Source: an uncultured bacterium
GTDB lineage: Bacteria > Acidobacteriota > HRBIN11 > JAKEFK01
NCBI GenBank assembly: GCA_963777505.1
Contig: CAVZQN010000004.1
Span: 1,575,814-1,639,813 of the forward strand
Length of the DNA stretch: 64,000 bases
Direction: 5' to 3'
Within the stretch, counting starts at the first letter, position 1, and every line of letters begins with the position of its first letter. A program made the translations under genes and the position numbers. Below the pieces are notes generated by a model that worked only from the letters and a program-made list of their open reading frames with translations, was not told where the DNA came from and did no database searches. Of the stretch, positions 2,357 through 33,907 are shown piece by piece.

Positions 2357-2851
2357 ATGATCGAAAAAAGTTTGAATCTGGAAGAATTATCAAAGGAAGT
2401 TGAAGAACTTTTAGATCGACGCGGACTTTTAGACGTTCAACAAGATGGAAGGGTGTCGCCAATTCCTGATGCACGAACGATCCGTTATTACACAACGTTA
2501 GGATTGCTGGAACGTCCAAAAATTGTATTGCGCCAGGCTTCGTATGGGAAACGTCATGTCTTGCAGCTTCTTGCAATCAAATCGCTGCAAGGAATGTCGA
2601 TGCCGTTGGAAGAAATTCAGGCGCGACTTTATGGAAAAAGTGATCGTGAACTGGAAGCAATTCTGGAATCTATTTCAAACAAAAGAAAAGCACCCCGGAG
2701 CGAAATCAATCCGCTCGTTTGGCGTGAAATCATAATCGAGCCCGGACTAAAAATAATGGCTGAAGCAAAATGGCAACCTTCCGATGAAGAAGCTCTTGCA
2801 AAAAGAATTCGCGCAGCAGTTGCTGTATTTGCGAAGGAGGAAAAACAATGA
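2357..2851 (+). CDS. MerR-like helix-turn-helix regulatory protein (164 aa)
   Basis: Segment ARTIRYYTTLGLLERP...GKRHVLQLLAIKSLQGMSMPLEEIQARL resembles the MerR-family HTH/wing signature (TLRYYE-GLL...Y..L.fI.....G.sL.eI); stop overlaps start of next gene (ATGA at 2848-2851). Confidence 0.45.
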   Translation: MIEKSLNLEELSKEVEELLDRRGLLDVQQDGRVSPIPDARTIRYYTTLGLLERPKIVLRQASYGKRHVLQLLAIKSLQGMSMPLEEIQARLYGKSDRELEAILESISNKRKAPRSEINPLVWREIIIEPGLKIMAEAKWQPSDEEALAKRIRAAVAVFAKEEKQ

Positions 2852-5319
2852 CTACCCCCCAAATTCCAATCGTCGATCTGCCGGAAGACGATTGTACCCG
2901 TAGTTTCGGCGTATTAACTGTACAAAAAGCAGCACAGCGCATTGCTCTGCCACTCGAAAAGGTGGAAATTGATGCAAGAGTTGCCGGACAAATCGCGGAA
3001 GTTACAGTTCTGCAGTCTTTTCGAAACGAACATCAAGAAGCACTAGAAGCTGTATACATTTTTCCGCTTTCAGGAGGATCAGCAGTCAGCAGTTTCGAAA
3101 TGAAAGTAGGTTCACGTCTCCTTCGCGGCAAAGTGGAAGAGCGCGCACATGCGCGCCAGCAGTATGAAAATGCCATCCAGGATGGAAAGAGAGCAGCGTT
3201 GCTTGAACAAGAACGTGACGATGTTTTCACGCTTCAAGTTGGAAACATACTTCCTGGTGAACATGTTGAAATCAAGATCACCTATTCTGAACGTCTGCCA
3301 TTTTTTGAAAATGGAACGACTGAAATCCGGCTGCCGATGGTTGTTGCTCCAAGGTATGTTCCTGGAAGTCCGCTTGATTCCAGCGGAGTTGGGGATGGAA
3401 TTGAAGAAGATACCGATATTGTTCCAGATGCTTCCAGAATTTCTCCACCACGGTTGGCGAAAGGTTTTGATCCAAAAGTAGGCCTCAACATTCAGGTTGA
3501 ACTTTTGAGCGATGCAGCGATTCGAGAACTATCCTGCTCGCAACATGCGACCCGTACTTCAAATTCAGGAGGCAACGGAATCACTGTTTCGCTTTCCAGG
3601 ACCGACGAATTACTGAATCGTGATTTTGTGTTGCGATGGAACCTCGGTGAAAACAAAATCCAGACAGTTTTCCAAGGATACAAGTCAGAGCATGGCGATT
3701 ATTATGCGATGTTATCGATCCTTCCTCCGCAACTCGAACATCAATCCATTGCAGGACGTGATGTAGTTTTTATTGTGGATCGATCGGGATCGATGCGCGG
3801 TATAAAAATGGCTTCAGCATCCAAAGCATGTGCGATTTTGCTTTCAACGCTCGGACCCGCGGATCGTTTTGCAATTGCTTGCTTTAACACGGCCGTTAAA
3901 TGGTTTTATCCCAATGGTATGGATGGTCAGCGTTTTCTAACAGCCGATGAATCAGGTTTGAAACGTGGTGAAGCATTCTTGCGTGAAATAACAAGTGAAG
4001 GCGGTACAGAACTCGATCAAGCTCTGGAATCGGGTTTGGAAGTGATTCGCAGACGCAGTGATGACAGTACGCGTGTTCCAGTAGTTGTACTTTTGACCGA
4101 TGGACAAATCTCCGATGAGGCCCGCGTATTATCGCGGATCCAAAAAGAGGTTGGAGGTTCTCGTATTTTTACAGTTGGTATTGATACTGCAGTTAATCAT
4201 GGATTTTTGAGCCGTCTTGCTGCATTAGGAAAAGGAACATCCACATTCGTTGAACCAGGAGCGTCCTTAGATAATGCGCTACGGGCAATTAGCAGAGAAA
4301 TTGGAGCTCCAGTAATTGTAGATGTTAGCCTGAAGGATTTGGATTCAAACATAAATATGGAAACAATTTCACCCGCCCGAATTCCGGATCTATTTGCCGG
4401 ACGCTCCAGCGTCACTTTTTTTCAGATGAAGCAACCGGGGCGCATTCAGATCAATGGAAAATTCAGCGATGGAAGCAATTTCGAACAAACAATTTCTTCA
4501 GAAGTCACTCCGGTATCTGCAATTGCGCATTTGTGGGCTCGCGCACGAGTCAGGGATTTAGAAGATCAGTTCCGGCTCGAAAGTGGTCTGCAAGAGCAGA
4601 CAAAAAAGCAAATTATCGAAATTGCAATTCAGCATACATTACTGACGCGTTTTACAGCATTCGTAGTTGTTGATGAAAGCGAAGTTGTAAATCAGGATGG
4701 AACTCGAAGAAAAATTGTTCAACCAGTAGAAATGCCGGCCCAATGGGAAATGGATATGGGTTCTTCAATGCATATCACTGGAGCCATGGCGATGATGTCT
4801 TGTCCGCCGCCGCCGCAAGAAGCACGTGCTTCAGCACCAGTAGCGATGATGCAATTTGATGAAGGAACCAGACCTTCATCTTTATTGAAAGGGCTCTTCC
4901 GTAAACATCGCCGCGATGTGGATCCAAAACAGAAGCCTGCAGAATCAAAAGCGTTGAAAGATGCGGTCAAAGATTTTATGAATGCATTCGACAGCGTACA
5001 AAAATCCATAGAGTCAGGGCAGGTACCTTCAGGGAAACAACTTGAAAAGACACACAAGCAACTAATCAAGCTGATGACGGAGAGTGGTGAATATTCAGCG
5101 ATCAGACGTTTGCTGACTAGTATGGTCACAGAACTATTGACAGCTTTGCGAAGTCCAGGAATTGAAGTGTCAGCTTTGCGGAATATCTTGAATCAGAATA
5201 AGAAAACGATTGATGAAGCCTTTCGCGAAGTAAATGCAACGACAGCCGGCCCATTTCTGGGAATCAACCATTTGATCTCTGCGTCTTTGCGGTTTGTTGG
5301 CGAATTCTGTTACACTTGA
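2848..5319 (+). CDS. VIT-domain plus von Willebrand factor type A (vWA) domain protein, 823 aa, with Met/Pro-rich linker and C-terminal helical domain
   Basis: vWA MIDAS motif D-x-S-x-S in VVFIVDRSGSMRG, downstream LLTDGQISD, and TAFVVVDESEV motif typical of VIT-vWA proteins; N-terminal ~250 aa VIT-like; translationally coupled to the upstream HTH gene. Confidence 0.7.
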   Translation: MTTPQIPIVDLPEDDCTRSFGVLTVQKAAQRIALPLEKVEIDARVAGQIAEVTVLQSFRNEHQEALEAVYIFPLSGGSAVSSFEMKVGSRLLRGKVEERAHARQQYENAIQDGKRAALLEQERDDVFTLQVGNILPGEHVEIKITYSERLPFFENGTTEIRLPMVVAPRYVPGSPLDSSGVGDGIEEDTDIVPDASRISPPRLAKGFDPKVGLNIQVELLSDAAIRELSCSQHATRTSNSGGNGITVSLSRTDELLNRDFVLRWNLGENKIQTVFQGYKSEHGDYYAMLSILPPQLEHQSIAGRDVVFIVDRSGSMRGIKMASASKACAILLSTLGPADRFAIACFNTAVKWFYPNGMDGQRFLTADESGLKRGEAFLREITSEGGTELDQALESGLEVIRRRSDDSTRVPVVVLLTDGQISDEARVLSRIQKEVGGSRIFTVGIDTAVNHGFLSRLAALGKGTSTFVEPGASLDNALRAISREIGAPVIVDVSLKDLDSNINMETISPARIPDLFAGRSSVTFFQMKQPGRIQINGKFSDGSNFEQTISSEVTPVSAIAHLWARARVRDLEDQFRLESGLQEQTKKQIIEIAIQHTLLTRFTAFVVVDESEVVNQDGTRRKIVQPVEMPAQWEMDMGSSMHITGAMAMMSCPPPPQEARASAPVAMMQFDEGTRPSSLLKGLFRKHRRDVDPKQKPAESKALKDAVKDFMNAFDSVQKSIESGQVPSGKQLEKTHKQLIKLMTESGEYSAIRRLLTSMVTELLTALRSPGIEVSALRNILNQNKKTIDEAFREVNATTAGPFLGINHLISASLRFVGEFCYT

Positions 5320-5378
5320 AACGGACCAGACTCTACCGTTTCCGTTGTAAAACGACGCCACATCCTTGCTGATTTTTT

Positions 5379-8300
5379 ATGCCTGATTACTTGAAAGAAG
5401 CCAGAAAAGCTGAAAAAGAAAAAATCTTTTCGAGAGCGGGCGAATTCTACCGGCTTGCTGGAGAAATCGATTCTGCTGTTGAAATGTACATGAAGGCAGA
5501 AGACTACATTCTCGCCGCTGGTCTCATGGAACAAAAAGGCAACTGGAGTGCTGCTGCAAATCTGTATGAACGCGGCAGACAATACCGCGATGCTGCCAAG
5601 ATTTACGAAAAAATTAAAGACTATCGTTCCGCCTTTTCAATGTATGAAAAGATCAACGATTATCCACGTGCTTCAGAAATGGCGGAAAAAGCGGAAGATT
5701 ATTTCAAAGCTGCTGTTATGGCTGAAGAAGCAAAAACATTGCAACGTGCAGCACAACTTTATATTCAAGCCAACCAATATCCACAAGCTGCAAGAATTCA
5801 TTACAAATTATTGCAACAACTTGTCGATCTCACTGAAAAAAGGTTTTTTCCAGATTATGAGGCGCAACTCGCGAAGCATGCGAATACAACGGCGATGCTT
5901 TACGAACGGATTAATGATCATGCAAAAGCAGCCTACTGTTATCAACTTGCAAGAAATCATAAGAAAGCTGCAGAGTCGTATCTTGCAGATCAGAAACCTG
6001 AGAAAGCTGCAGAGATCTATCACCAGCTAAAGAGCTACAACAAAGCATTTGAGATTTTGTCAGGACTCACTGACGTTTCAAACAAGCCTCTTTTCGCGGA
6101 TGTTTGTTACCAGTTAAAGAAATTTGATAAAGCTGCAACTTTATTTCAGCAGTGCGGAAATCTTGGCCGCGCTGCTGATGCCTGTGAACAGGCAAAGCTT
6201 TATAACATCGCAGCTAAGATTTATGAAGAACTAGGAAATTTCAAACGTGCTGCAGAAATGTGTTTGAAGGCAAATAATAAGATTCGAGCGGCTGAACTTT
6301 ATGAAAAGACAGGAAACTTCGGCAACTCCGCAATTTTGTATCAGCAGTCCGGACAAAATGAAAAGGCATTGGAAAGCTATCTTGCGATCGGGCGAAGAAT
6401 TCCTGCCGCCAAAATCGCTCTTCAAATAAAAGATGAAGATAGAGCTATCTTTTTGCTTCAGGCAATTAATCCAATGGAAGAAGAATATAGAGATGCTTGT
6501 GCACTTCTTGGTGTAATTTTCGCTGAAAGAGGAATGAGTTCAGCGGCTCAGCGCAAGTTCGAAGAAGCATTGGAACGCCCCACGCTTACGAAGACAAATT
6601 TGGACATCTATTTTGATCTTGCGATGCAGCAGGAAAAAATGGGGATGCGTGCAGAAGCGGCCGACTTGTATGAGCGGATTCTTTCTGTGGATTTTTCGCA
6701 CAAGGAAGCTTCACGCCGCCTTGAAGAGTTACGAAGATCGGCTGTTTACCATATTCCGGATACATTTTACGTGCCCCAGCCTTCAGAAAGTGTCGAAAAC
6801 ATTCAGACATCCGGACAACCTCGAATTGTGGCATCGCGTTATGAGTTGGTGGAAGAAATGATTCATGATGCTTCGGGGAAAGTATATAAAGCCAGCGATC
6901 AATTTTTTCAACGTCCTGTCATGATCCGGATTCTTCCGAAGCAGGATCAAAATCTTACACAGGTGATTCTAAAATGCACTCAACTTTCATCGGCACTCAA
7001 CCACAATAACATTCTCGCAATTTATGATGGTGGGAAAGATAAAGATGATTACTTTGTTTGTACCGAATATGTAGACGGTCAAACTCTGCGGCAGTATCTT
7101 TCGGATCATTCTTTGAATATTCAGGAAGTTGTTCAAATTGCGCAACAGATTATTTTGGCCCTTGCGTATGTTCATAAGAAGGGTCTAATTCATGGAAATC
7201 TGACGCCGGAAAATATTTATATTGCAGCCGACAAAAGTGTAAAGGTCACTAATTTTGGAAATCTTGCAGTATGGGAAAAACAAAATGCGGCTGTTGTTAA
7301 GCAATACTTAAGTCCGGAACAGCTTACGGATCAGACTTCTGATGAGCGAAGTGACGTCTATTCGTTCGGGATTATTTTGTATGAGCTTGCCTATGGCAAT
7401 CCTCCTTTTTCGGGCGTGGATGTAGAACAACAACATTTGAGTGCTCTTCCTGTATTTGAAGAAACTCCTTTACACACTGTCCCGGATTTTCTGATCCGAA
7501 TTATGAAGAAGAGCCTTGCAAAGGATCGAAACAGACGTTACGCAAATGCGGATGAAATCCAAAATGAGTTTGAAACACCGGGAATCACACCAGGCGTTGT
7601 TATCAATGGCAGATATGAAATTGTCCGTGAACTTGGCGAAGGCGGTATGGGAAATGTTTATCAAGCGCGGGACAGGGACCTGGATGAAATCGTTGCATTA
7701 AAAATGTTGAAGGGGGAGATCGGCGGTGATCCTGATATGCTTCAACGTTTCATTCGTGAAATCAAAGTCGCAAGAATGATTGCTCATCCAAATGTAGTAC
7801 GCGTTTTTGATACCGGGACATACGAAGCAAATCGATACATAACGATGGAATATATCGATGGCATCAGTTTTGACCGATGGATCGATCAATCTAGAGAGAT
7901 CGATCTGAAAACTCGACTCAACATTTTGTTGAAAATCATTCAAGGCGTTCAAGCCGCTCATGCCCGTGGCATCGTTCATCGTGATTTGAAGCCTCAAAAT
8001 ATTTTGATTGATTCCGACTTCATTCCTCACATTCTCGATTTTGGAATTTCACGAGTACGAACTCACAAAGATAGTTCAACGACAGCCAAAATTGTACTTG
8101 GTTCACCAAAATATACATCTCCGGAACAAATCAGCGGACAGGAGGCGGATTATCGCAGCGATATTTATTCGCTTGGAGTCCTTACTTTCTACATGTTAAC
8201 GTTTCAAGAACCTTTCAGCGGAGATGATGTCCAGAGTATTTTGATGAAACACCTAACTTTGGAGCCTGCTTCGCCCCGCCACTTGAATCCTGAAATTCCA

Positions 8301-8420
8301 CTCTGGCTCGAAGATATTGTTCTTCGCGCGTTACGAAAAGATCCCGCCAAACGTTTCGAAAACCTCGATGAAATGCTCGCCGACCTCAAATTCGGCATCG
8401 ACTTCAAGCAAAACTCATAA
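5379..8420 (+). CDS. Multidomain signalling protein: N-terminal array of TPR-like ~19-residue helical repeats, a degenerate (pseudo)kinase domain, and a canonical Ser/Thr protein kinase domain (1013 aa)
   Basis: C-terminal domain has LGEGGMGNVY, VALKML, HRDLKPQNIL, DFGISR, SPKYTSPE. The preceding domain has VMIRIL (K to R), HGNLTPENIY (HRD to HGN) and TNFG (DFG to NFG). N-terminal 350 aa are periodic Y-x-x-A-A-x-x-Y-E-K-type repeats. Confidence 0.8.
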   Translation: MPDYLKEARKAEKEKIFSRAGEFYRLAGEIDSAVEMYMKAEDYILAAGLMEQKGNWSAAANLYERGRQYRDAAKIYEKIKDYRSAFSMYEKINDYPRASEMAEKAEDYFKAAVMAEEAKTLQRAAQLYIQANQYPQAARIHYKLLQQLVDLTEKRFFPDYEAQLAKHANTTAMLYERINDHAKAAYCYQLARNHKKAAESYLADQKPEKAAEIYHQLKSYNKAFEILSGLTDVSNKPLFADVCYQLKKFDKAATLFQQCGNLGRAADACEQAKLYNIAAKIYEELGNFKRAAEMCLKANNKIRAAELYEKTGNFGNSAILYQQSGQNEKALESYLAIGRRIPAAKIALQIKDEDRAIFLLQAINPMEEEYRDACALLGVIFAERGMSSAAQRKFEEALERPTLTKTNLDIYFDLAMQQEKMGMRAEAADLYERILSVDFSHKEASRRLEELRRSAVYHIPDTFYVPQPSESVENIQTSGQPRIVASRYELVEEMIHDASGKVYKASDQFFQRPVMIRILPKQDQNLTQVILKCTQLSSALNHNNILAIYDGGKDKDDYFVCTEYVDGQTLRQYLSDHSLNIQEVVQIAQQIILALAYVHKKGLIHGNLTPENIYIAADKSVKVTNFGNLAVWEKQNAAVVKQYLSPEQLTDQTSDERSDVYSFGIILYELAYGNPPFSGVDVEQQHLSALPVFEETPLHTVPDFLIRIMKKSLAKDRNRRYANADEIQNEFETPGITPGVVINGRYEIVRELGEGGMGNVYQARDRDLDEIVALKMLKGEIGGDPDMLQRFIREIKVARMIAHPNVVRVFDTGTYEANRYITMEYIDGISFDRWIDQSREIDLKTRLNILLKIIQGVQAAHARGIVHRDLKPQNILIDSDFIPHILDFGISRVRTHKDSSTTAKIVLGSPKYTSPEQISGQEADYRSDIYSLGVLTFYMLTFQEPFSGDDVQSILMKHLTLEPASPRHLNPEIPLWLEDIVLRALRKDPAKRFENLDEMLADLKFGIDFKQNS

Positions 8421-8487: not shown

Positions 8488-8841
8488 TTATTTCGATAGC
8501 TTCGATGTTTTTATGGAAGATACGAATATGGAAACAAGTTCATTTCCCTCAACAATTAATGATCTTAATAAAGACTCATTAAGGATTTTGCATTCGATAA
8601 TAATCTCCATCCAATAAAGAGATTCATCCGCTTCTTCCAAAACAATTCCCAGTTTTGAGATAAAATCCACTTTTGAACGTGCTCGACAAGCTGCACGATA
8701 ATTTGCTCCCACGGACGTTCCGGACCGAAAAAGCTGATCACCCACGCGTCGTGCTTCATATGAATTCGGCAGAGCTCTGCATAGTCTTAGGATGCGCTTC
8801 CCGTATTCTTTTGTTCGTCTCTTCATCTCTTGTTGATTCAT
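8488..8841 (-). CDS. Four-helix-bundle protein (TIGR02436; 23S rRNA intervening-sequence protein family)
   Basis: SGTSVGANYRAACRARSKVDFISKLGIVLEEADESLYWMEII matches the family signature; start moved to internal ATG (8839-8841) because the track ORF 5' end runs into repeat R2; flanked by inverted repeats R1/R2. Confidence 0.75.
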   Translation of the reverse strand: MNQQEMKRRTKEYGKRILRLCRALPNSYEARRVGDQLFRSGTSVGANYRAACRARSKVDFISKLGIVLEEADESLYWMEIIIECKILNESLLRSLIVEGNELVSIFVSSIKTSKLSK

Positions 8842-8875
8842 ATACCAACCTTCTCTCAATCTTTCAATCCTCAAT

Positions 8876-8935
8876 TTCAATCTGAAATCTAGAATCTGAA
8901 ATCTTAAATAATTGAACCGCAAAGTCACGGAGTTC
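8876..8935. repeat. Terminal inverted repeat R2 of IVS-like cassette
   Basis: caatctttcaatcctcaatttcaatctgaaatctagaatctgaaatcttaaataa is the reverse complement of R1. Confidence 0.75.
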
Positions 8936-8952
8936 TTTGCGTCTTTGCGGTT
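8915..8952. repeat. Hairpin formed by two inverted copies of the recurrent motif (AACCGCAAAG ... CTTTGCGGTT, 10-bp stem)
   Basis: aaccgcaaagtcacggagttctttgcgtctttgcggtt read directly; overlaps the 3' end of the DUF2851 CDS. Confidence 0.6.
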
Positions 8953-10388
8953 GGATTAAATTCGCAGCGGGAGCAGGAAGCATCGCGGTTATCGCAAAAG
9001 TCGTAAAAGAAGTGATGGAGCGCTTGTTGCCGGTGTGCGCTGTCAATCATGTTTCTTGCTTTCTCCGGGCTCCCAAACATCCGATGAACCATCAGACGTG
9101 TAATGCTGTTGTTAGGCAGTTTTGGATGACGTCTATAGATTGCATGGAGAGAATCTTCGAGCCCTCGTTGTGAAGTGAGCTCTGCATGCGCTAACAACAA
9201 TGGAAGCACGACATTTACGATCAGGATCCGCGCGCGATCCTTTCCGATCAATCTGCGAGGTGCGCTGAATTTGTGCTTATCGAATTGATAATGGTATGAC
9301 CAATACAAATGCGATGGACGTCCAAACAAGGCATTCCACGATTTGAGTATTTCGCGAATTCCGCGAGGCGATGGAAAAGGTTCGCCGATAGGGTGGAGTA
9401 ACAATGGAATGATTTGTCCAGAATGGTAATGAAAAAATGATGCAACAGCAGTGAGCCTGCGTGCAGGGAAGTTTGCCGGACGTGTACTTGAGGGATACCA
9501 ACAAAACCCGGTGAGTATTCGCGATTGAAAATGGGATTCGTGTTTATGCCAGTATTGAAAAAGCTCGTTTAGATACCACGACGTTTCAGGATCTTCCGGA
9601 GTTAAACGGATCTGTGATAAGTCTTCGATCAATCCCGCAGTACCAAGTAATATCGCAGCCATTGAATCGATACCGCGCCGACCCGCAAAATTGTAATGCA
9701 TCAATTCATCAATCGGAATTCTTTGGGCAAGCTCACGGAATGCATATCGAGATTGCTTATATCCCATGCCTTCCATGATGCCTTCATAAAAAGCTTGCTG
9801 AAATGTTTGCGATCGAAGTGCCGTCAGATATCGTTCCTTTTTTCGGCGCATTCGAAGATCGCCTGCTGAATCCAATATTCGTGTGATGGATAGTTCATCA
9901 TGCTCTTCCAGAAATCGTCTGCAAAGATGTACTTTGCTTCCTGCATGAAATGGAAATTCATGAATCGGCAATCGTGTCTGCAGCAGCCTTAACTCTTCCA
10001 TCAATGAATCTTTTAATTCCAGTTCAGGAACCGACTCTCCATTCTGTTTGATACATTCCGCGCCTGTGCTGTACAAAACAACGTGAAGAACAACGCTGTT
10101 GTAACGTGGATCCAGATGGTGCCGGTGTTGATACCATTCACCGCTGCTTAAATGAATTTCAACATCACCACACATCCGTTTTCCATCAACAAACAATTCT
10201 GCATTTCGAAAGTCCGGGCCTGCTTCAAGATTCCACCAACCTGGCGATGATATCGATAACGCTGTGCCGTTCAGGCGCAATTGTTTCCGGAAGAGTTGTT
10301 CAGACCAGATGCAATGGATTAAACGTTCAAGGACGCGTTCGCGTCCACCATAGGGGTTTTGCGATTCGCAGACGAGATAAGGTTCCAT
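8925..10388 (-). CDS. DUF2851-family protein (487 aa)
   Basis: N-terminal ERLIHCIWSEQLF...PGWWNLEAGPDF...GDVEIHLSSGEWYQHRHHLDPRYNSVVLHVVL pattern recalled for DUF2851; assignment from memory only. Confidence 0.5.
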   Translation of the reverse strand: MEPYLVCESQNPYGGRERVLERLIHCIWSEQLFRKQLRLNGTALSISSPGWWNLEAGPDFRNAELFVDGKRMCGDVEIHLSSGEWYQHRHHLDPRYNSVVLHVVLYSTGAECIKQNGESVPELELKDSLMEELRLLQTRLPIHEFPFHAGSKVHLCRRFLEEHDELSITRILDSAGDLRMRRKKERYLTALRSQTFQQAFYEGIMEGMGYKQSRYAFRELAQRIPIDELMHYNFAGRRGIDSMAAILLGTAGLIEDLSQIRLTPEDPETSWYLNELFQYWHKHESHFQSRILTGFCWYPSSTRPANFPARRLTAVASFFHYHSGQIIPLLLHPIGEPFPSPRGIREILKSWNALFGRPSHLYWSYHYQFDKHKFSAPRRLIGKDRARILIVNVVLPLLLAHAELTSQRGLEDSLHAIYRRHPKLPNNSITRLMVHRMFGSPEKARNMIDSAHRQQALHHFFYDFCDNRDASCSRCEFNPTAKTQRTP

Positions 10389-10469: not shown

Positions 10470-10660
10470 CGGCCGCAATTTCAGATTTCAGATCTTAGAT
10501 TTCAGATTGAAATTGATGATTTTTGGATTTAAGTACAGGTTAATTCTACTTTATGTGAGCAGACCGAATTAAGGCTTAAAAAGAATCTAATAGCTTCTAT
10601 CAATCTTCAATCAAAAATTTCAATCTGAAATCTAAGATCTGAAATCTAAAATCTATTGGA
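10470..10660. mobile_element. MITE-like empty element: inverted repeats R3 (10470-10530) and R4 (10598-10660) of the same GATTTCAGATT family flanking a 76-bp non-coding core
   Basis: 33-bp core caatttcaatctgaaatctaagatctgaaatct is identical between rc(R3) and R4; no ORF between them; sits in the DUF2851 / radical-SAM intergenic region. Confidence 0.6.
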
Positions 10661-12023
10661 CTTGGAGTTTGGCGTAGGAGGGTGAACTGCCGCAGCTTTC
10701 AAACCATTCGAGGCCTTCACACACCATATCAAATTTCAGCCAGTACTGGCCGGGTGAGTTTACGGCGGGAACTTGAAAATCAAGACGCAATGCTTGTCCT
10801 GAAGGAAGAGCCTTTGGAAGCAAAGCACGTCCGAAGTTGCGGTTAATCATGCTACGGTTGCGATCTAACAATGAAATTCCGAGAGTGATATGTCTTCGAT
10901 TCGTGCGTGAAGTGTTTTTCCAGAGTGCCCCGCCGGCATTAAGAATTTCTGCGCTTGTAGTAAACGATTGGCCGGCTTTGACTTTCAATGCTGCAATCTC
11001 CGGACGTATTTCGGCTTTTAATGCTTTTTCGTGGATTGCATTTCCTAAAGCGCTCCAGATTTCATGCTGAATCTTTTCATATTCAGGGCGTCCCGGAACA
11101 AACCTTTCGGAAGCTGAATTTTCAGGATGATCTGTAATTTCCCAGCATAAACGATCGATTCCAAGTTCACCTGCAAGTTTTCGTGCAAGATCCATCTCTT
11201 CATCAGTGTCGTTCCAACGAAACAAAATGTAACGCCAGTTGATGAACGGCGTATCGGAGTTCAGTTCATGTTTGATTTCCACAAAGCGCTTCAGGATGCG
11301 CATCAATTTATCGAAATCGCCTCCACGCCTGTAACGCACATATGATTCTTGCATGGCCCCATCGATCGAGAAAGTAATTTCATCAATCCCTGATTTCGTA
11401 AGAGCGCGCAGTTTTTCATCCGTGTTTAGCAGCAATCCATTAGTGCTTGTAAAAAGATAAATCTGAGGATATCGAGATTTTGCATATTCGATCATTTCGA
11501 TCGCGCGTGGATGGATGAAACTTTCACCGTAATTAAAGAAGTCAATGCGCTGAAGTCCCGGTCCAAGCTCATCAATTACTTTTGTGAAAGTGTCATAATT
11601 CAAGAGCCGGATCGATCGCGTAAAATGGATTCCATTTTCATGATTGCAACAAGCTTCAAAACAGGAAAGATTGCAGGAGACACAAGGCTCTACGAATAAA
11701 CGCTGAGGCATATAGGCAAGCGAGGTGCCATCAGGTAATTTCACTGCAGGATCGGATGCAACTCCCATCAAGTTGCAATGGGTGCAAAGTACGGGATTAT
11801 TTTTATGCAGACCCTCACGCAATCCACGAAACACCGGACCATTCCAAATTTCTTTAATGCTCAAGATCGATGCATTGCCAGCCGGACGCTTTTTGAATGG
11901 ATCGGCACAACCACAAACGATCGTTCCATCTGACATTAATGTGACCGTCTCCCATGGCCATGTACAAAAGAAACGCTGGCCTGGTTGAAGATCGATTTGA
12001 GAGGGTTCTTCGGTTCCTATCAT
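10653..12023 (-). CDS. Radical-SAM-like protein with N-terminal SPASM-like Cys-rich domain and non-canonical Cys cluster (456 aa)
   Basis: N-terminus FFCTWPWETVTLMSDGTIVCGC...GNASILSIKEIWNGP...CTHCN resembles a SPASM/twitch domain. The core has CVSCNLSCFEACC (not CxxxCxxC) and FNYGESFIHP (GGEP-like). The C-terminal ~100 aa are unassigned. 4-nt overlap with the upstream deacetylase gene. Confidence 0.5.
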   Translation of the reverse strand: MIGTEEPSQIDLQPGQRFFCTWPWETVTLMSDGTIVCGCADPFKKRPAGNASILSIKEIWNGPVFRGLREGLHKNNPVLCTHCNLMGVASDPAVKLPDGTSLAYMPQRLFVEPCVSCNLSCFEACCNHENGIHFTRSIRLLNYDTFTKVIDELGPGLQRIDFFNYGESFIHPRAIEMIEYAKSRYPQIYLFTSTNGLLLNTDEKLRALTKSGIDEITFSIDGAMQESYVRYRRGGDFDKLMRILKRFVEIKHELNSDTPFINWRYILFRWNDTDEEMDLARKLAGELGIDRLCWEITDHPENSASERFVPGRPEYEKIQHEIWSALGNAIHEKALKAEIRPEIAALKVKAGQSFTTSAEILNAGGALWKNTSRTNRRHITLGISLLDRNRSMINRNFGRALLPKALPSGQALRLDFQVPAVNSPGQYWLKFDMVCEGLEWFESCGSSPSYAKLQVQ

Positions 12024-13414
12024 TTTTGAATTGTTGCTACGTTTGGCAGGAGATCCTGGCGATCGATGAGTTGACTTGCCGAAATAAGCTCATAACCGCG
12101 TTGACGAAAAGTCTGGATAATTTCGGGAAGCCATTTATCGACACGATCTTCCGGTTGACGTTGAGTTCCCAGGTGCATCAGTACAATAGCTCCATTTGTT
12201 TGAGCCGCTTCATTGTGCCCAAAACTTAAAATACGGTCTTTGATTAACATTGCAGGAAAATAATTTGCATAACTTGAATTTGGCACCCAATCCAGGCTGT
12301 CCATATTTTGGCGAGTCTTTGGATCGGATGTCCATGCAACGTGAACGAACCCGAGCTCGGCAGCCCAACGCCGAATTTCGAGATTATGCTCTCCGTAAGG
12401 CGCGCGCCACAAAGGCACCATTCGTTTGCCAGTCGTAAGATAGAACAATTCATCCGTTTTACGCAACTGCATCTGAAGATCTTCGCGCGTGAGCATAGGA
12501 GAAGTTTTCTGCTGTGAATCCGTTGCAAATGTTGTGAGATGGTCATGGCTGAAAGTATGATTGCCAACTTCATGCTCTGAAGCGATACGCCGCGACATTT
12601 CAGGAAATTTTTGAATGAACTCCCCGGTGAGGAAAATCGTGGAACGCACATTATGTTTTTTCAGTGCATTAAGAATCGATTCCGCTGAATTTGCCTCTGA
12701 GCCTCCGTCAAACGTGAGAACAATCTCTTTCCGATTGATGTTTCCGCGCGAAATATTGTCCGGTGAATTTTGGAAAAACTTCCAATTTGCGCTGTCAGAC
12801 TTTATTGAATCCTGATACAGAACCATAATGGCTGGAGAAAAATTTGAAGATCCATCATCATCATAGAATCGGGTCTGCAGTACATTTGCATGTTTCGTTA
12901 GCATGACTTTTGGGAAGCGATACAGCGTGTTGCGTGCTACCGTGCTTTCTACAAGTGATCCGTTCAGGTAAACGGCAACTACAGCATTTGCCGGAGCCGA
13001 GCCTTCTACCTCGACGAACTGAGAAGCGCTCTTCATCCCATTGATTGGCCGCGTAATATTAATCCCATCAGCCTTATCGTCAGCTTTTTCCAGGTCAATA
13101 GGCAGTGACGGTGTCATGAGATCAGGTTGTTGATGCTGACTTCCACCGGAATAAAAAGCGTCTGCAAGCAGGCCGAAATAAACAAAACCTGCCGCTAAAA
13201 CTACCAGCGAAGCATATATTGCATATCGACCATAATTGCGGGTGGGTGTAGCCGTCGCATTCTTTTGCAAATATGTTTTATGACAGAGGTCTCCGCAAAA
13301 TAAATGATGATCCAGGCTAATCTGGCATTGCGGACAAAGCGCGCGACCACATTCAAAGCACTTACGGCGCGCAATACGTGACGGATGTTTAAAACAAAAC
13401 CTAGGCTCGTTCAT
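12020..13414 (-). CDS. Polysaccharide deacetylase (CE4/NodB-homology) with N-terminal zinc-ribbon and one TM segment (464 aa)
   Basis: N-terminal CFECGRALCPQCQ...CGDLCH Cys pairs and a TM helix (YAIYASLVVLAAGFVYFGLL). NodB motifs LTFDGGSE, HTFSHDH and LWRAPYG. Confidence 0.7.
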   Translation of the reverse strand: MNEPRFCFKHPSRIARRKCFECGRALCPQCQISLDHHLFCGDLCHKTYLQKNATATPTRNYGRYAIYASLVVLAAGFVYFGLLADAFYSGGSQHQQPDLMTPSLPIDLEKADDKADGINITRPINGMKSASQFVEVEGSAPANAVVAVYLNGSLVESTVARNTLYRFPKVMLTKHANVLQTRFYDDDGSSNFSPAIMVLYQDSIKSDSANWKFFQNSPDNISRGNINRKEIVLTFDGGSEANSAESILNALKKHNVRSTIFLTGEFIQKFPEMSRRIASEHEVGNHTFSHDHLTTFATDSQQKTSPMLTREDLQMQLRKTDELFYLTTGKRMVPLWRAPYGEHNLEIRRWAAELGFVHVAWTSDPKTRQNMDSLDWVPNSSYANYFPAMLIKDRILSFGHNEAAQTNGAIVLMHLGTQRQPEDRVDKWLPEIIQTFRQRGYELISASQLIDRQDLLPNVATIQK

Positions 13415-14271: not shown

Positions 14272-15351
14272 TCAAAAGTAAAGATGAATGCGGAACGTTA
14301 GCTCATCTGCATTCTGAATTTCATTTTGCGGAATGCTTTGATTGAAGCTGTAATACACTCCGACCTGTAAGAACGGAACGATAAAAGGTTCGACTCCAAC
14401 CAACACTCGATCGCGCTGATTTTCATCGATATCCCGATTTGGGTCAAGAAATTCATACGCAGCTTTGACATTCCAGCCATCCGTTATCAGGTAATTTACT
14501 TCAGCGTGTGCAACAAATTGTTCGCGATCAGCTTCATCGGGAATTTCGTCCTTCACAAGATCGACTTCACCAAGAAAAACGGCTTTGTACAATCGGAATC
14601 CACCCCACAAACCTGCTGCCGTGCGATCACCCAAATCGGATGGGTTGTACGATCCTGAGGCGCCGATTCTAAATGCATTCGCTGCATACGATACAGATCC
14701 AACGAATTGTTTTGAAGCATTGTTATCCAGGCTACTACCGGTGCCGTTTGTTGCGGAAGTTACAATTGAAAAAGGTCCAGGTTCAAAGCCGACTTCAACT
14801 CCCGCGTCAGGATTATTGAAATTAAATCCTGTTGCTTCGCGGATAAATGCGCGATCATCTTCAATTCGCAGGCCGTAAGGGAGAATAAAACGTCCGCCTT
14901 TGATCCATCCGTGCGCAGGCATCGCCTCGAACATCGCGAATATTTCACGACTCTGGACTCCGCCCGGCGCGACACTTTCATCAACATACAAAGAAAGCAT
15001 GTCTGGAATTGGTTTTACATGGAGATAAATATTTCCTTTGTCGGTTAGAAATGTATTTGCGGTGTTATCTTCAACGAAAGTGCTTTGATTCAAGAATCTG
15101 AAATCCCCACCCACTGAAAGATTTCCGTCTAGAATCGCCCAATAGTGTGGCACTTTTTTTTCACTCAGGTCGATTTTTTGCCAGGGAAGGGCTTGGGTTC
15201 CGTATCCAGATCCCATTACATTACGTTTACCGCCTCCGGTTCGATTCACATGACAGGCACTGCATTTGAGACCTTCACGAATCGCAAGATAAGGTTCCGA
15301 AAAAACAACGGTTGGACACAGAACGAACAGCAGCAAGATTATTCGTTTCAT
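14272..15351 (-). CDS. Outer-membrane beta-barrel protein with N-terminal CXXCH heme motif; candidate Cyc2-like fused cytochrome-porin
   Basis: Signal peptide MKRIILLLFVLCPTVVFS, then CSACH 12 aa into the mature protein, a glycine/aromatic-rich beta-strand-like body, and C-terminal ...TFRIHLYF (terminal Phe). Confidence 0.5.
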   Translation of the reverse strand: MKRIILLLFVLCPTVVFSEPYLAIREGLKCSACHVNRTGGGKRNVMGSGYGTQALPWQKIDLSEKKVPHYWAILDGNLSVGGDFRFLNQSTFVEDNTANTFLTDKGNIYLHVKPIPDMLSLYVDESVAPGGVQSREIFAMFEAMPAHGWIKGGRFILPYGLRIEDDRAFIREATGFNFNNPDAGVEVGFEPGPFSIVTSATNGTGSSLDNNASKQFVGSVSYAANAFRIGASGSYNPSDLGDRTAAGLWGGFRLYKAVFLGEVDLVKDEIPDEADREQFVAHAEVNYLITDGWNVKAAYEFLDPNRDIDENQRDRVLVGVEPFIVPFLQVGVYYSFNQSIPQNEIQNADELTFRIHLYF

Positions 15352-15362
15352 TCAGTTTTCCC

Positions 15363-15821
15363 TCAGTTGCGTTGGGCACCCTGGGAGATCCAAACGCGGA
15401 AAGCGTTAATGGTTTCTTGAGGCAATGGCGGAATATTTAATGGCATCTGAGCCCCTACAATATTCGGCACCCCTTCAAGTTTGTGAATTAAATAGCTGTT
15501 ATCCGGATCGCCTGGTCTTACTCGAAACAGTTCCGGTCTTTCAACTGATGCAACGTTTACCAAAGAATCGTAAGCATTGACTTCATCTAATCGCAGTCCT
15601 TGCGGAGCATTTGCACCGATATGACATGCAACACAAACCCTGTTAAAAACATTGGCCTGAATGTTTGTAAAGGTAGGAGGAAAAGTTACGGGCAAGTCTC
15701 CATTTCCAGAACCGACCGGATTGCCATTTTCATCGAGTCCATTTCCATTGCCCGCACATCCTGCAAGTAAAGCTAATAATGCGAAAACCGGCAAAACTCG
15801 AAGTAAATCTCTAAAAAACAC
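15363..15821 (-). CDS. Small monoheme c-type cytochrome lipoprotein
   Basis: Lipobox LLAGCAG, a Gly/Asn-rich linker, a single CVACH heme-binding motif and a downstream Met (GAQMP); probably GTG start; immediately upstream of the Cyc2-like gene on the same strand. Confidence 0.6.
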   Translation of the reverse strand: MFFRDLLRVLPVFALLALLAGCAGNGNGLDENGNPVGSGNGDLPVTFPPTFTNIQANVFNRVCVACHIGANAPQGLRLDEVNAYDSLVNVASVERPELFRVRPGDPDNSYLIHKLEGVPNIVGAQMPLNIPPLPQETINAFRVWISQGAQRN

Positions 15822-21184: not shown

Positions 21185-21913
21185 TCAACCACTGTAACTG
21201 TCGAAGCGAGCGAGCCAGGCGCTCAGCCTTGAGAATTGGTTTGTCGCTACCAGCAGCCCAATTAAAATCAATAACACACCACTGGCTAATTCAATTCCAC
21301 GATAATGCTTCTTAATAGCCTTAAACACATTCATAGCATAGTTCAAGGCTATTCCGGTTAAGAGAAAAGGTACACCGAGTCCCATTGAATAAACAGCGAG
21401 AAGTATGATCCCATCTGCCGTTGTTTTTTGATCTGCAGCAATTAAGAGAATCCCACTTAGAATTGGACCGATACAAGGGGTCCAGCCGAATGCAAATGCT
21501 GCACCGATTAAGACAGATCCTAGCATCCCCAAAGGTTTTTCTTTTACATGAACCCGTTTTTCATAATCCAGCCATTTGATTCGATAAACCCCTGCAAGAT
21601 GCAAACCCAACACAATGATTACGATGCCACCGATTACATTAATGTATGTTTTGTAAAGTACAAGATACTGTCCGATATAACTTGCTGTCGCGCCAAGAGT
21701 ACAAAAAACAAGGCTGAATCCCAGGACAAATAACAGAGTATTGATGATGACTTTTCGTCCCGTCCCTTTTTCTTCGGTTTTGCCTCGCATTGCATCCAGC
21801 GATACACCCGAAATGTAGGAGAGATAAGCCGGTACCAATGGCAACACGCATGGTGAAATGAATGAGAGCAAACCGGCTGTGAAAGCTGTTATGAAATTTA
21901 CTTGTTCAGTCAT
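21185..21913 (-). CDS. ccdA: Cytochrome c-type biogenesis protein CcdA (DsbD-like thiol:disulfide transporter core)
   Basis: LSFISPCVLPLVPAYLSYISG with conserved Cys, second Cys in GWTPCIGPIL, 6 TM segments. Confidence 0.8.
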   Translation of the reverse strand: MTEQVNFITAFTAGLLSFISPCVLPLVPAYLSYISGVSLDAMRGKTEEKGTGRKVIINTLLFVLGFSLVFCTLGATASYIGQYLVLYKTYINVIGGIVIIVLGLHLAGVYRIKWLDYEKRVHVKEKPLGMLGSVLIGAAFAFGWTPCIGPILSGILLIAADQKTTADGIILLAVYSMGLGVPFLLTGIALNYAMNVFKAIKKHYRGIELASGVLLILIGLLVATNQFSRLSAWLARFDSYSG

Positions 21914-28099: not shown

Positions 28100-28819
28100 A
28101 TGGATCTAAAAAACAAAAGTGTTCTGATTACTGGAGCAGCCCGAAGACTCGGCCGTGAGACTGCAGTTCATCTGGCGCGAGCAGGGGCTCGAATTACAGT
28201 TCAATATAACGAATCGGCAGAAGACGCGAAATCACTTCAAAAAGAAATTGGCTGCGAAATTGTTCAGGCAAATTTTACAGCAATGCCCGCCGAAGAACTT
28301 TGTAAGCGTCTGGAATCGGCAGCCGGACATGTTGATATTCTGATTAACAACGCGTCCACGTTTACACATGTGCGATGGCCTGAAATTTCGGAAGAAATAT
28401 GGGATCGGGAACTTGCAGTAAATCTTAAAATACCATTCTTCTTAACGCGTTACTTTGGAAGCCGAATGAAGACGAAAGGGATCGGCAAAATTTTAAACAT
28501 AGCCGATATTGCTGCAGAGCATCCATATTTAACATATTTTGCATACAGCATAGCGAAGTCCGGAATCATCACAATGACGCGTGGATTTGCCCGGGCGCTG
28601 GCTCCATCAGTTCAAGTAAATGCTATCGCTCCCGGCACGGTATTGCCGCCTGACAATATGGATCCCGGGCAATATCGTAAACTAATAGAGAAAATTCCTG
28701 CGCAACGTCCGGCGAGTGTGGAAGAGTTTTTACGAACTGTTGATTTCTTGCTGTCGGATGTAGATTATATTACCGGCCAAACGATCACTTTAGACGGTGG
28801 CCGTTCATTAAACTGGTGA
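28100..28819 (+). CDS. SDR-family short-chain dehydrogenase/reductase
   Basis: VLITGAARRLG NAD(P)-binding motif and the catalytic YSIAKSG. Confidence 0.8.
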   Translation: MDLKNKSVLITGAARRLGRETAVHLARAGARITVQYNESAEDAKSLQKEIGCEIVQANFTAMPAEELCKRLESAAGHVDILINNASTFTHVRWPEISEEIWDRELAVNLKIPFFLTRYFGSRMKTKGIGKILNIADIAAEHPYLTYFAYSIAKSGIITMTRGFARALAPSVQVNAIAPGTVLPPDNMDPGQYRKLIEKIPAQRPASVEEFLRTVDFLLSDVDYITGQTITLDGGRSLNW

Positions 28820-28847
28820 AAAAACTTAGCGTCTTTGCGGTAAAAAA

Positions 28848-29873
28848 ATGATTACACATGATTGGCACGCTTCAAAAGGTGCAAAATTTCAAGATTTTTT
28901 CGGCGTAGAAATTCCTTCAAATTACGGCGACGTTGAATCGGAATACTGGGCATTACGAAAAGCCGTGGGTCTGCGTGATGTCAGTTATTTCGGGAAAGTA
29001 AAAGTCTCAGGAAAAGATGCGCAGGAATTTTTGCATCGCATGATTTCAAATGATGTAAAGTCTCTGGCACCCGGAAAAGGCGTCTGGGCCTTGTTCCTTA
29101 ATATCAAGGGCCACATTCAAGGGGACATGAAAATTTATCGATTTCCTGATTATTTGCTGATGGTCATGCAACACCATGCTCTTGATCGAGTCGTCAAAGG
29201 TCTTGACCGTTATATCATTGGTGAACAACTTCAAATGACGGATGTTTCCGGTCAGTTCGCACTTTTCCAAATCTTAGGCCCTGAAGCTAAAACCTTCCTT
29301 CAATCAAAAGGGGCAAATCATTTACCCGAAACTGAACTCGCTTTTGAGTCAGTCTCCTTTGATGGAATTGCAACACAGGTGATCCGCTTGGGACTTGGAT
29401 ATGCTTTGCTTGTTGAAGCAAATTCCGCTGTTCAGCTTTTGAATTTCCTGAATGTGCAACCTGTAGGGATGCAGGCATTCAACATATTTAGAATTGAATC
29501 CGGACTTCCTTTGTTAGGGCTGGATTATGATGAGACCAATTTGCCTCAGGAAAGCAGACTCGATCACGCTTTGAACTTCAATAAAGGTTGCTATTTAGGA
29601 CAAGAAGTTATGGCACGCCTGGATGCTCAAGGTCATGTAAATAAGGTGTTGATGGGCCTGGTGTCGTCTGATGAAGTCAGCCGTGATCAAAAGTTGTTTG
29701 CTGGTGAAAAGGAAGCCGGCAGAATCACAAGTGTTGCGCGATCTCCGCTTTCCGGTGAATATGTTGCCCTGGGTTACATCCGCCGCGAATTTGCTAAAGA
29801 AAATCAGCCTCTACAAGTTTCTGGCAATAGTACTACAGCCATAGTACGCAACCTCCCCATCGTACAGCAGTAA
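28848..29873 (+). CDS. YgfZ-like folate-binding protein (GcvT/aminomethyltransferase fold)
   Basis: KGCYLGQEVMARL signature of YgfZ/GcvT-family proteins. Confidence 0.65.
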   Translation: MITHDWHASKGAKFQDFFGVEIPSNYGDVESEYWALRKAVGLRDVSYFGKVKVSGKDAQEFLHRMISNDVKSLAPGKGVWALFLNIKGHIQGDMKIYRFPDYLLMVMQHHALDRVVKGLDRYIIGEQLQMTDVSGQFALFQILGPEAKTFLQSKGANHLPETELAFESVSFDGIATQVIRLGLGYALLVEANSAVQLLNFLNVQPVGMQAFNIFRIESGLPLLGLDYDETNLPQESRLDHALNFNKGCYLGQEVMARLDAQGHVNKVLMGLVSSDEVSRDQKLFAGEKEAGRITSVARSPLSGEYVALGYIRREFAKENQPLQVSGNSTTAIVRNLPIVQQ

Positions 29874-30283
29874 TGAGAAAAGTTTCCAAGCTCGAATTGC
29901 AGGACGTAAAAAAGATCCTTACGGCTTCCGAAGCAGAAGCCATTCGGATCGGCGTTGATATGGACATTGCGGTCGTTGATGATGGCGGGAATCTCCTCGG
30001 ATTTCTCCGAATGGATCGTGCCAAGGTAACAAGCATTCAAATTTCAATTGATAAAGCTTTTACCGCAGCCGGAACACGAAAGCCTACAAAAGATTACAAA
30101 GCCGTAGGCGCTGTTGATGGAATGGCATTTGGGATCAACACCAGCCATCAAGGACGTTTTACAATTTTCGGCGGTGGCGTTCCAATTATGATTGAAGGCG
30201 AATGTGTCGGCGCCGTGGGCTGTAGTTCAGGGACTCCTGAGCAAGATGAACAGGTTGCTCAAGCAGGAATCAATGCACTCTGA
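29873..30283 (+). CDS. GlcG/HbpS-like heme-binding protein (DUF336)
   Basis: 136 aa; DIAVVDDGGNLLGFLRMD and GGGVPI motifs typical of DUF336. Confidence 0.7.
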   Translation: MRKVSKLELQDVKKILTASEAEAIRIGVDMDIAVVDDGGNLLGFLRMDRAKVTSIQISIDKAFTAAGTRKPTKDYKAVGAVDGMAFGINTSHQGRFTIFGGGVPIMIEGECVGAVGCSSGTPEQDEQVAQAGINAL

Positions 30284-30300
30284 ATCTTTGCGGTAAAAAA

Positions 30301-32617: not shown

Positions 32618-32710
32618 TTTCGGATTTTAACCGCAAAGACTCAGAATCTCTGTGGTTCACAAAAGGAGTTAGTTTTGCCACGAAAACACAAAGAGCATGG
32701 AGATAAGAAC

Positions 32711-33883: not shown

Positions 33884-33907
33884 AGACATATAATTAGATC
33901 AGAAATT

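Follow-up and report, generated by a model that had tools for sequence, protein, structure and literature searches.

Here we describe two adjacent genes on contig CAVZQN010000004.1 of an uncultured Acidobacteriota bacterium, which lie in a stretch of 64,000 nucleotides (nt) that was analysed as a whole (the window; all positions are given in window coordinates). The product of the larger gene, a protein of 359 amino acids (aa), is best seen as a new form of the known fused cytochrome-porin type, which is like Cyc2 but forms a sequence family of its own, with a different haem environment and a dedicated lipoprotein cytochrome as its partner. We consider it fairly probable that the two proteins constitute a self-contained electron conduit from the outer membrane to the periplasm, in which electrons would most likely flow inward. 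The more specific proposal, of a second family of fused monohaem cytochrome-porins with a bis-His (His34/His356) barrel haem and a tether-docked, FoxE-like lipoprotein as its outlet, is put forward tentatively.

Layout of the locus and its two haem-binding motifs

The interval 14272-15821 contains exactly two open reading frames (ORFs), both on the minus strand (Table 1). The 359-aa protein starts with MKRIILLLFVLCPTVVFS, after which the predicted mature chain begins with EPYLAIREGLKCSACH (opening EPY), and it ends in RIHLYF. Its signal peptide (MKR, a hydrophobic stretch and the cleavage site VFS/EP) can be seen directly in the sequence, and the position of this peptide is conserved in alignment A1, which comprises 30 members of the barrel family with 36-79% identity to the 359-aa query. 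The haem-binding motif CSACH stands at residue 12 of the predicted mature chain. Sequence and alignment uphold what the original prediction had noticed here, namely a signal peptide, a single CXXCH about 12 residues into the mature chain and a C-terminal Phe. The upstream gene had been taken to encode a lipoprotein with one CXXCH, and this reading holds as well: its 152-aa product begins with MFFRDLLRVLPVFALLALLAG-C, i.e., a lipoprotein signal peptide ending in the lipobox LLAG-C22, carries a single CVACH, and recurs in identical form among the predicted proteins of public assemblies (P0121).

Only two CXXCH motifs occur in the 19,030 residues of the window's 52 likely proteins, one in each of these adjacent genes. 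Residue shuffles of the window proteins gave 0.05 such motifs on average and a probability of 0.001 for two or more; when the 359-aa protein was shuffled alone, the probability of a CXXCH was 1.5e-4. A six-frame scan of ORFs of at least 90 aa detected a sole further CXXCH, on the strand opposite the dCMP-deaminase gene, in an ORF of 104 aa. Every cysteine in the mature forms of the two proteins belongs to a haem motif or to the lipobox. No terminator-like site was found between the two genes on the minus strand, and no promoter or terminator call near them rose above the shuffled background; the two genes are probably co-transcribed.

Family, haem motif and fold of the barrel protein

Searches of Pfam and NCBIfam with the 359-aa protein returned nothing at E ≤ 1, and searches of the PDB sequences with the protein and with its family profile returned only noise. 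A word-indexed search gave 221 homologues, of which all those with a source annotation are named 'hypothetical protein' and some bear a precomputed Pfam Porin_4 match; the nearest named homologues are from Acidobacteriota (57-62% identity). A hidden Markov model (HMM) search of 1.84 billion cluster representatives yielded 2,404 clusters at E ≤ 1e-3, 1,193 at E ≤ 1e-10 and 427 at E ≤ 1e-30. The family thus comprises about 2,400 clusters at 50% identity, and its members are 355-400 aa long.

C30, C33 and H34 of the haem motif are invariant in A1 (30/30 homologues), and in the following VNRTGGGKRN the residues N36, T38, G39, G41 and R43 are invariant too. Among 118 full-length representatives with at most 50% mutual identity, 117 have CXXCH at this position, and 116 of these 117 have exactly one. 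Apart from H34, the one conserved His is His356, which is invariant in A1 and kept in 92% of 114 representatives; a conserved Met is absent from these 114 sequences. The alternating hydrophobic pattern of the last strand, I-H-L-Y-F, suggests that His356 faces the lumen. A cytochrome f-like ligation of the haem by the N-terminal alpha-amino group, an idea taken from the invariant Glu-Pro at the predicted cleavage site, was rejected, since in several clades 2-4 extra residues separate the likely cleavage site from Glu-Pro.

An AlphaFold2 model built from the alignment (mean predicted local distance difference test score, pLDDT, 72.8; predicted template modelling score 0.73) has 16 strands within residues 78-358. 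The pLDDT is about 80-90 in the barrel and falls below 50 for residues 13-73, the haem head, which is as expected because this segment would need haem to fold. Foldseek placed OprP first among the PDB matches of the barrel model and also listed OprO, so that the beta-barrel-like body read from the sequence by the original prediction is borne out; no fused cytochrome-porin was found among these structural matches. The phosphate-selective porins OprP and OprO and the general 16-strand porins OmpF, PorB and Omp32 are only 9-15% identical to the barrel protein. They differ from it in having neither a haem nor an N-terminal head, and the conserved segment at residues ~156-181, which may be the analogue of a constriction loop, is specific to the barrel family.

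The Porin_4 matches of some homologues and the general-porin fold might suggest a general porin that binds no haem and has its CXXCH by chance. This explanation is effectively refuted by the near-universal retention of the motif among the representatives, inside an invariant signature of 25 residues, by its low probability in the shuffled protein, and by the fact that the partner is itself a cytochrome. The haem motif of the 359-aa protein is not coincidental, and its homologues keep it, unlike the heme-less porins with a chance CxxCH that had been named as the case to be excluded.

Relation to Cyc2

As defined by Keffer et al. 2021, Cyc2, the Fe(II)-oxidising fused monohaem cytochrome-porin of Acidithiobacillus ferrooxidans and Mariprofundus ferrooxydans PV-1, has a signal peptide, one CXXCH with AxPxFAR[Q/K][T/Y] upstream and PxL four residues downstream, a 16-strand porin and a length of at least 365 aa (PMC8406198). 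Most Cyc2 proteins have at least 400 aa; they have been modelled as 16-strand porins on OprP/OprO templates, with the haem proposed to be packed at the periplasmic mouth of the barrel (PMC8406198). The original prediction had seen in the 359-aa protein the hallmark of Cyc2-type iron oxidases. What stands of this is the design, i.e., a signal peptide followed by a short head, which has one CXXCH close to the start of the mature chain, on an OprO/OprP-like 16-strand barrel. The spacing from the conserved Pro to the first Cys (10 residues) and a Gly three residues before that Cys are shared with Cyc2, and in some genomes genes of both kinds lie near those of dihaem c4 cytochromes and cupredoxins.

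Membership in the Cyc2 family does not stand. In place of the upstream Cyc2 motif the 359-aa protein reads SEPYLAIRE; the family as a whole has PYLAxREG for PxFAR[QK][TY], and P.FAR[QK][TY] occurs in none of the 118 representatives. The place of PxL is occupied by the invariant xNxTGGGxR, and the protein is shorter than 365 aa. A Cyc2 reference set of 76 complete motif-bearing proteins (407-529 aa, longer than the members of the barrel family) was obtained from metagenome contigs scanned with the back-translated motif, and a surrogate Cyc2 HMM built from these 76 sequences stands in for the FeGenie Cyc2 HMMs. With this surrogate the 359-aa protein scored 5.3 bits (E 0.11) and the barrel proteins of 82 related loci had a median of 11.8 bits, compared with at least 202 bits for true Cyc2. 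The Cyc2 C-termini that were examined do not have the conserved His356 of the barrel family. Moreover, the lipoprotein cytochrome partner, which we term obligate for the barrel family, is absent from Cyc2 loci: none of 118 loci with the Cyc2 motif has the gene.

Profile comparisons with hhalign located the likeness to Cyc2 in the head. The N-terminus with its signal peptide aligned over 44 columns (probability 96%, E 3.6e-9) and the mature head alone over 29 columns (87-95%, E 4.5e-6 to 2.2e-8), whereas the barrel alone aligned over 81 columns at 18% (E 1.4e-3), the barrel sequences being unrelated at profile level. In a control, either head aligned with the unrelated cytochrome family of the partner over only 7-10 residues round CxxCH (probability 25%), and the likeness between the two heads is for this reason regarded as specific; the heads may share an ancestry. 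A short and divergent but true Cyc2 orthologue would explain the same domain order, the haem some 12 residues into the mature chain, the class of barrel and the head alignments. We regard such orthology as very improbable in view of the motifs, length, profile score and barrel sequences given above, the lack of the partner at Cyc2 loci, and the presence of canonical Cyc2 and the barrel family as distinct genes in one and the same cluster (see below). By these comparisons the 359-aa protein is built like Cyc2 but lies outside the Cyc2 family as defined, and 'Cyc2-type iron oxidase' can serve as a candidate label only.

A FoxE-like lipoprotein cytochrome as the partner

The partner was examined in two family alignments of 28 (A2, which spans phyla) and 30 (A3) homologues. 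The lipobox Cys22 is invariant in all 28 and 30 of them, and the lipobox agrees with L-[AS]-[GA]-C, so that lipidation is predicted. Directly after this Cys follows a tether of the form C-AGNGxGLDxNGxP, in which C22, G24, G26 and G28 are invariant in A2 and C-A-G-N-G-x-G-L in A3. Lipoprotein tethers are normally not conserved, and we therefore infer a docking role for this one. In Escherichia coli, the residue at position +2 sorts lipoproteins, and those without Asp there go to the outer membrane; if this rule is valid for the phylum, the partner, which has Ala in that position and no Asp, probably ends up on the inner leaflet of the outer membrane.

In both alignments C63, C66, H67, M126 and P127 do not vary, and the C-terminal W..GA is invariant in the family. 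When the partner profile was compared with all PDB sequences, the best match was FoxE (5mab; E 6.5e-6), a periplasmic c-type cytochrome with two haems that acts as Fe(II) oxidoreductase in Rhodobacter ferrooxidans SW2. Both haem domains of FoxE aligned over the full cytochrome domain, with Met126-Pro127 falling on the MP of each, and the shared elements run in the order CxxCH, GL.L, PGdP..S, MP and WI..GA, with His/Met-type ligation. By profile, the cytochrome domain of the partner is remotely homologous to FoxE, and the protein is probably a lipid-anchored, FoxE-type monohaem cytochrome c with His/Met ligation. It differs from FoxE in having one haem domain instead of two and in being a lipoprotein with a conserved tether instead of a soluble protein; nor does its gene sit in a foxEYZ-like operon, no pyrroloquinoline quinone (PQQ) protein or transporter gene being its neighbour. 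FoxE homologues have been described to exchange their Met ligands between domains (PMC10654088), which a monomeric partner with a single domain could not do.

The AlphaFold2 model of the partner (pLDDT 79) is helical and gave only weak Foldseek matches (E ≥ 0.2), almost all of them c-type cytochromes, so that the profile comparison was the more informative of the two. The homologue from Thalassomonas matches Pfam Cytochrom_C at 1.3e-9. PSCyt1 (PF07635) scored 17.3 bits with the partner (E 0.0072), under the gathering threshold of 22 bits, and 8 of 30 partner homologues match it weakly over the segment from CxxCH to PGxP (best E 3.5e-4). PSCyt1 is a planctomycete cytochrome c domain that is normally found in very large multidomain proteins, whereas the partner is a small lipoprotein.

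Table 1 Features of the cytochrome-porin locus (window coordinates)
Feature	Positions	Strand	Remarks
Gene of the putative monohaem cytochrome-porin fusion, 359 aa	14272..15351	-	Signal peptide, residues 1-18; haem head, 19 to ~75; predicted 16-strand barrel, 78-359
Partner gene, predicted lipoprotein monohaem cytochrome c, 152 aa	15363..15821	-	GTG start; signal peptide and lipobox LLAG-C22, conserved tether, cytochrome domain ~50-150
Intergenic spacer, 11 nt	15352..15362	-	Holds a GAGGGAAAA-type ribosome-binding stretch
Haem-binding motif CSACH (C30-H34) of the 359-aa protein	15250..15264	-	Inside the signature AEPYLAxREGLKCSxCHxNxTGGGxR; invariant in A1
Predicted barrel, 16 strands, residues 78-359	14275..15120	-	Includes a highly conserved non-strand segment, ~156-181 (LPYGLRxxDDxAFIRxxTGFN)
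His356 in the last strand (RIHLYF)	14284..14286	-	Candidate second axial ligand of the barrel haem
Lipobox Cys22 and conserved tether of the partner, LAG-C-AGNGNGLDENGNP	15717..15767	-	From the translation and the family alignments
Haem-binding motif CVACH (C63-H67) of the partner	15621..15635	-	Invariant in A2 and A3
Met126-Pro127 of the partner	15441..15446	-	Candidate distal haem ligand (His/Met); invariant in A2 and A3

Pairing and gene neighbourhoods in other genomes

A scan of species-representative genomes with the pattern R[ET]GL[KR]C[SA]xCH gave 80 loci, a census that is biased to this motif. The majority are from Gemmatimonadota; the others are from Latescibacterota, Acidobacteriota, Steroidobacter, Peristeroidobacter, Thalassomonas sp. 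RHCl1, Bdellovibrionota, Polyangiaceae and Rhodothermales. The partner gene lies immediately upstream of the barrel gene, on the same strand, in 69 of the 82 loci, and this pairing spans Acidobacteriota, Gemmatimonadota, Gammaproteobacteria, Bdellovibrionota, Myxococcota and Rhodothermales. Across all 82 loci, no other neighbour than the partner is conserved, and synteny beyond it is lineage-specific, as with the aldehyde dehydrogenase gene near the pair in 28 loci of the Gemmatimonadota type. The pair usually stands alone among unrelated genes, response regulators being common neighbours. A subclade without the partner (L017, L019, L023, L025, L029, L030, L038 and others) keeps the head EPYIA[LF]REGLKC and has no other CXXCH gene nearby. 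A Bdellovibrionota metagenome-assembled genome (MAG) contains the partner-barrel pair in two tandem copies (L028:5523-8787), and two separate copies of the pair are present in several Gemmatimonadota MAGs (L014/L032, L016/L033, L020/L079 and L040/L074).

Genes of other electron carriers accompany the pair in part of the loci. A dihaem c4-type cytochrome gene adjoins it in 14 loci from four phyla, and 9 loci encode multi-cupredoxin (plastocyanin/sulfocyanin-like) proteins. The gene of a canonical Cyc2 (466-522 aa; IPAFARKYRTSCTTCHTAAPKL, with the motif and PxL) is found within a few kb of the pair in 8 loci of Gemmatimonadota, in 7 of them on the same strand. In seven loci (L006, L007, L011, L012, L014, L016 and L044; e.g., L016:27-7841) the pair lies near the end of a cluster of same-strand genes, and L013 is arranged differently. 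The order in these clusters is a CarboxypepD_reg protein, canonical Cyc2 (PAFARKY..CxxCH..PKL), a response regulator in some loci, a multi-cupredoxin/sulfocyanin-like lipoprotein, a dihaem c4-type cytochrome, the partner, the barrel protein and a second CarboxypepD_reg protein. By analogy, the Gemmatimonadota cluster resembles a rus-operon-like iron-oxidation locus, its composition recalling the Acidithiobacillus cyc2-cyc1-cup-cox-rus operon (PMC10654088). In marine Gemmatimonadota MAGs, Cyc2 and sulfocyanin homologues have already been read as putative iron-oxidation genes (PMC11316326), and several of the MAGs with the neighbour associations reported here are named like those of that study.

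The partner has additional domains in some lineages. In Thalassomonas sp. RHCl1 (L061:4438-5871) it is a protein of 477 aa with two Cytochrome_P460 domains, each with a CXXCH, which amounts to a trihaem lipoprotein beside the barrel gene. In Steroidobacter and Peristeroidobacter, the partner has about 285 aa, with an extra C-terminal Ig/CopC-like domain, and a divergently encoded CHRD and Big_7 protein of ~500-590 aa (L052:3488-5248, with equivalents in L039, L048, L064, L067, L070 and L072) carries a cytochrome domain of the partner type.

These observations bear on a non-respiratory role, in which the barrel haem would be a catalytic or sensing group for the detoxification or detection of NO, hydroxylamine, H2O2 or Cu(I) in the envelope and the lipoprotein cytochrome would be its reductant. 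P460 cytochromes are haem proteins that react with NO and NH2OH, so the Thalassomonas fusion is consistent with such a role, as are the CHRD-domain neighbour with the same cytochrome domain, the solitary position of most pairs and the frequent response regulators. We nevertheless judge it distinctly unlikely: the fusions are confined to particular lineages, the conserved core consisting of nothing but the barrel and the cytochrome domain; the association with c4 cytochromes, cupredoxins and Cyc2 fits electron transport better; and with His356 as the sixth ligand, the haem would have no open site for catalysis.

A proposed electron conduit across the outer membrane

In the conduit that we propose, the 359-aa protein would be exported and inserted in the outer membrane as a 16-strand porin-type barrel, and its first ~55 mature residues would carry one covalent c-haem. 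As this head is too short to fold as an autonomous cytochrome, it probably lies within the periplasmic mouth of the barrel or against it. One axial ligand would be His34; the second is probably the lumen-facing His356, at the periplasmic rim near the point where the head enters. Such bis-His ligation is proposed because His356 is the only other conserved His, no Met is conserved, and the pattern of the strand is that of a lumen-facing residue. The partner would sit on the inner leaflet of the outer membrane, docked at the barrel through its conserved Gly/Asn tether. Electrons would be exchanged between a small soluble redox species that enters the barrel and the barrel haem, and would move on to the tethered cytochrome and finally to soluble periplasmic carriers; in relatives, genes of a dihaem c4-type cytochrome and of cupredoxins adjoin the pair. 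Since a 16-strand pore passes only small solutes, the substrate should be a dissolved ion or a small molecule.

MtrAB(C), PioAB and MtoAB likewise combine an outer-membrane barrel with a c-type cytochrome, encoded by adjacent genes, into a path across the outer membrane. In these systems, however, a barrel of ~26 strands encloses a separate decahaem cytochrome, and the pair has neither. The lipoprotein cytochrome might also be exposed on the cell surface, with the barrel as its translocon and anchor, the tether running through the lumen in the style of RcsF-OmpA or MtrB-MtrC, and the barrel haem relaying electrons inward. The sequence after the lipidated Cys (C-AGNGxGLDxNG) is indeed unusually conserved across phyla, the two genes are strictly adjacent, and FoxE-type domains oxidise Fe(II) directly. 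On the other hand, a 16-strand lumen would be crowded if it held both a haem head and a threaded tether, and the subclade without the partner keeps its haem head unchanged; we consider surface exposure improbable and place the partner on the periplasmic side.

As for direction, an inward flow is most likely, with an electron donor outside the cell, for instance Fe(II), being oxidised in the manner of Cyc2. Fe(II) oxidation is our best single guess, although one made at less than even confidence; it is favoured because the head is Cyc2-like, the partner is FoxE-like, and some clusters combine the pair with Cyc2, a c4 cytochrome and cupredoxins. The opposite direction is unlikely in our estimate. 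Electrons would then be delivered to Fe(III) chelates, Mn(IV), Cu(II), humic quinones or oxygen species, either for assimilatory metal reduction or as an electron sink. A bis-His haem (H34/H356, no conserved Met), if present, would typically be of low potential and suit export, the carriers are soil and sediment heterotrophs, and some partners are fused to CopC/Ig-like metal-binding domains. In contrast, the His/Met FoxE-type partner belongs to a class that is normally of high potential and is known from an Fe(II) oxidase; the composition of the Gemmatimonadota cluster (Cyc2, c4-type dihaem cytochrome and cupredoxins) is that of oxidising, rus-like chains; and no quinol dehydrogenase or multihaem cytochrome is encoded nearby.

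Several observations weigh against the inward conduit. Thirteen of the 82 loci, mostly from Latescibacterota, have no adjacent partner. The haem head was modelled below pLDDT 50, so the position of the haem and its ligation by His356 are inferred. The function of the barrel family is deduced from sequence and model. The cultured carriers Steroidobacter, Peristeroidobacter and Thalassomonas are organisms that we take to be ordinary heterotrophs and not iron oxidisers. Other substrates are suggested by the P460 or CopC/Ig-like domains of some partners. The window has no oxidase, cupredoxin or further cytochrome; it contains beta-oxidation genes, and the pair has housekeeping neighbours. Finally, a bis-His haem is usually lower in potential than the haem of Cyc2, for which +208 mV has been reported in the case of Cyc2 PV-1 (PMC8406198).

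Surroundings of the pair in the window

In the window, the module is a bare two-gene core. The flanking genes encode a protein-isoaspartate methyltransferase, a dCMP deaminase/kinase fusion, RsgA, a radical S-adenosylmethionine (SAM)/SPASM enzyme, a polysaccharide deacetylase and a block for fatty-acid beta-oxidation. The original prediction had suggested looking for other genes of Fe oxidation or extracellular electron transfer (EET); within the 64 kb, neither another haem protein nor an EET gene was found. A CcdA/DsbD_TM-type gene, of the class of cytochrome c biogenesis thiol-reductant transporters, lies 5 kb from the pair (21185-21913, minus strand) and was counted in favour of the conduit.

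Other features of the window were noted in passing. The radical SAM/SPASM gene (10653-12023, minus strand) overlaps by 4 nt the stop of the gene upstream (12020-13414, minus strand), whose product has a Cys-rich N-terminus, a transmembrane segment and a polysaccharide deacetylase domain, and 10653-13414 looks like an operon. The beta-oxidation block (28100-35695, plus strand) comprises genes for a short-chain dehydrogenase/reductase, a GCV_T-like protein, a 3-hydroxyacyl-CoA dehydrogenase/enoyl-CoA hydratase, a thiolase and an acyl-CoA dehydrogenase; a gene for an HbpS-like haem-degrading protein (29873-30283) is embedded in it. A VIT-VWA protein gene followed by that of a 1,013-aa tetratricopeptide-repeat Ser/Thr kinase occupies 2848-8420 (plus strand), and a homologue of the 23S rRNA intervening-sequence protein and a DUF2851 protein are encoded at 8488-10388 (minus strand).

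Implications

No description of the barrel family was found in the searchable literature, and no curated Pfam or NCBIfam model for it was found. Cyc2 is the main marker gene for inferring neutrophilic iron oxidation from genomes and metagenomes. The definition of this marker uses the head motif and a length filter, and the barrel family passes neither; judging from the 365-aa filter and the surrogate HMM, the family probably escapes marker-gene tools such as the FeGenie Cyc2 HMMs, which are combined with filters for motif and length. The family is large (about 2,400 clusters), is found in dominant phyla of soil and sediment and has cultured carriers, which makes it worth studying by experiment. 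Steroidobacter, Peristeroidobacter and Thalassomonas open its function to direct genetics and to heterologous expression, a route that has already been used for Cyc2 PV-1. If the proposed conduit is real, at least two lineages, with different haem environments and periplasmic partners, would share the design of a fused cytochrome-porin, and marker-gene surveys would be missing a capacity for iron or metal redox reactions in major soil and sediment phyla that are deemed plain heterotrophs. In that case, cryptic oxidation of Fe(II) or other metals, or extracellular electron exchange, may occur in abundant heterotrophs of soil and sediment among the Acidobacteriota, Gemmatimonadota, Latescibacterota and Steroidobacteraceae.

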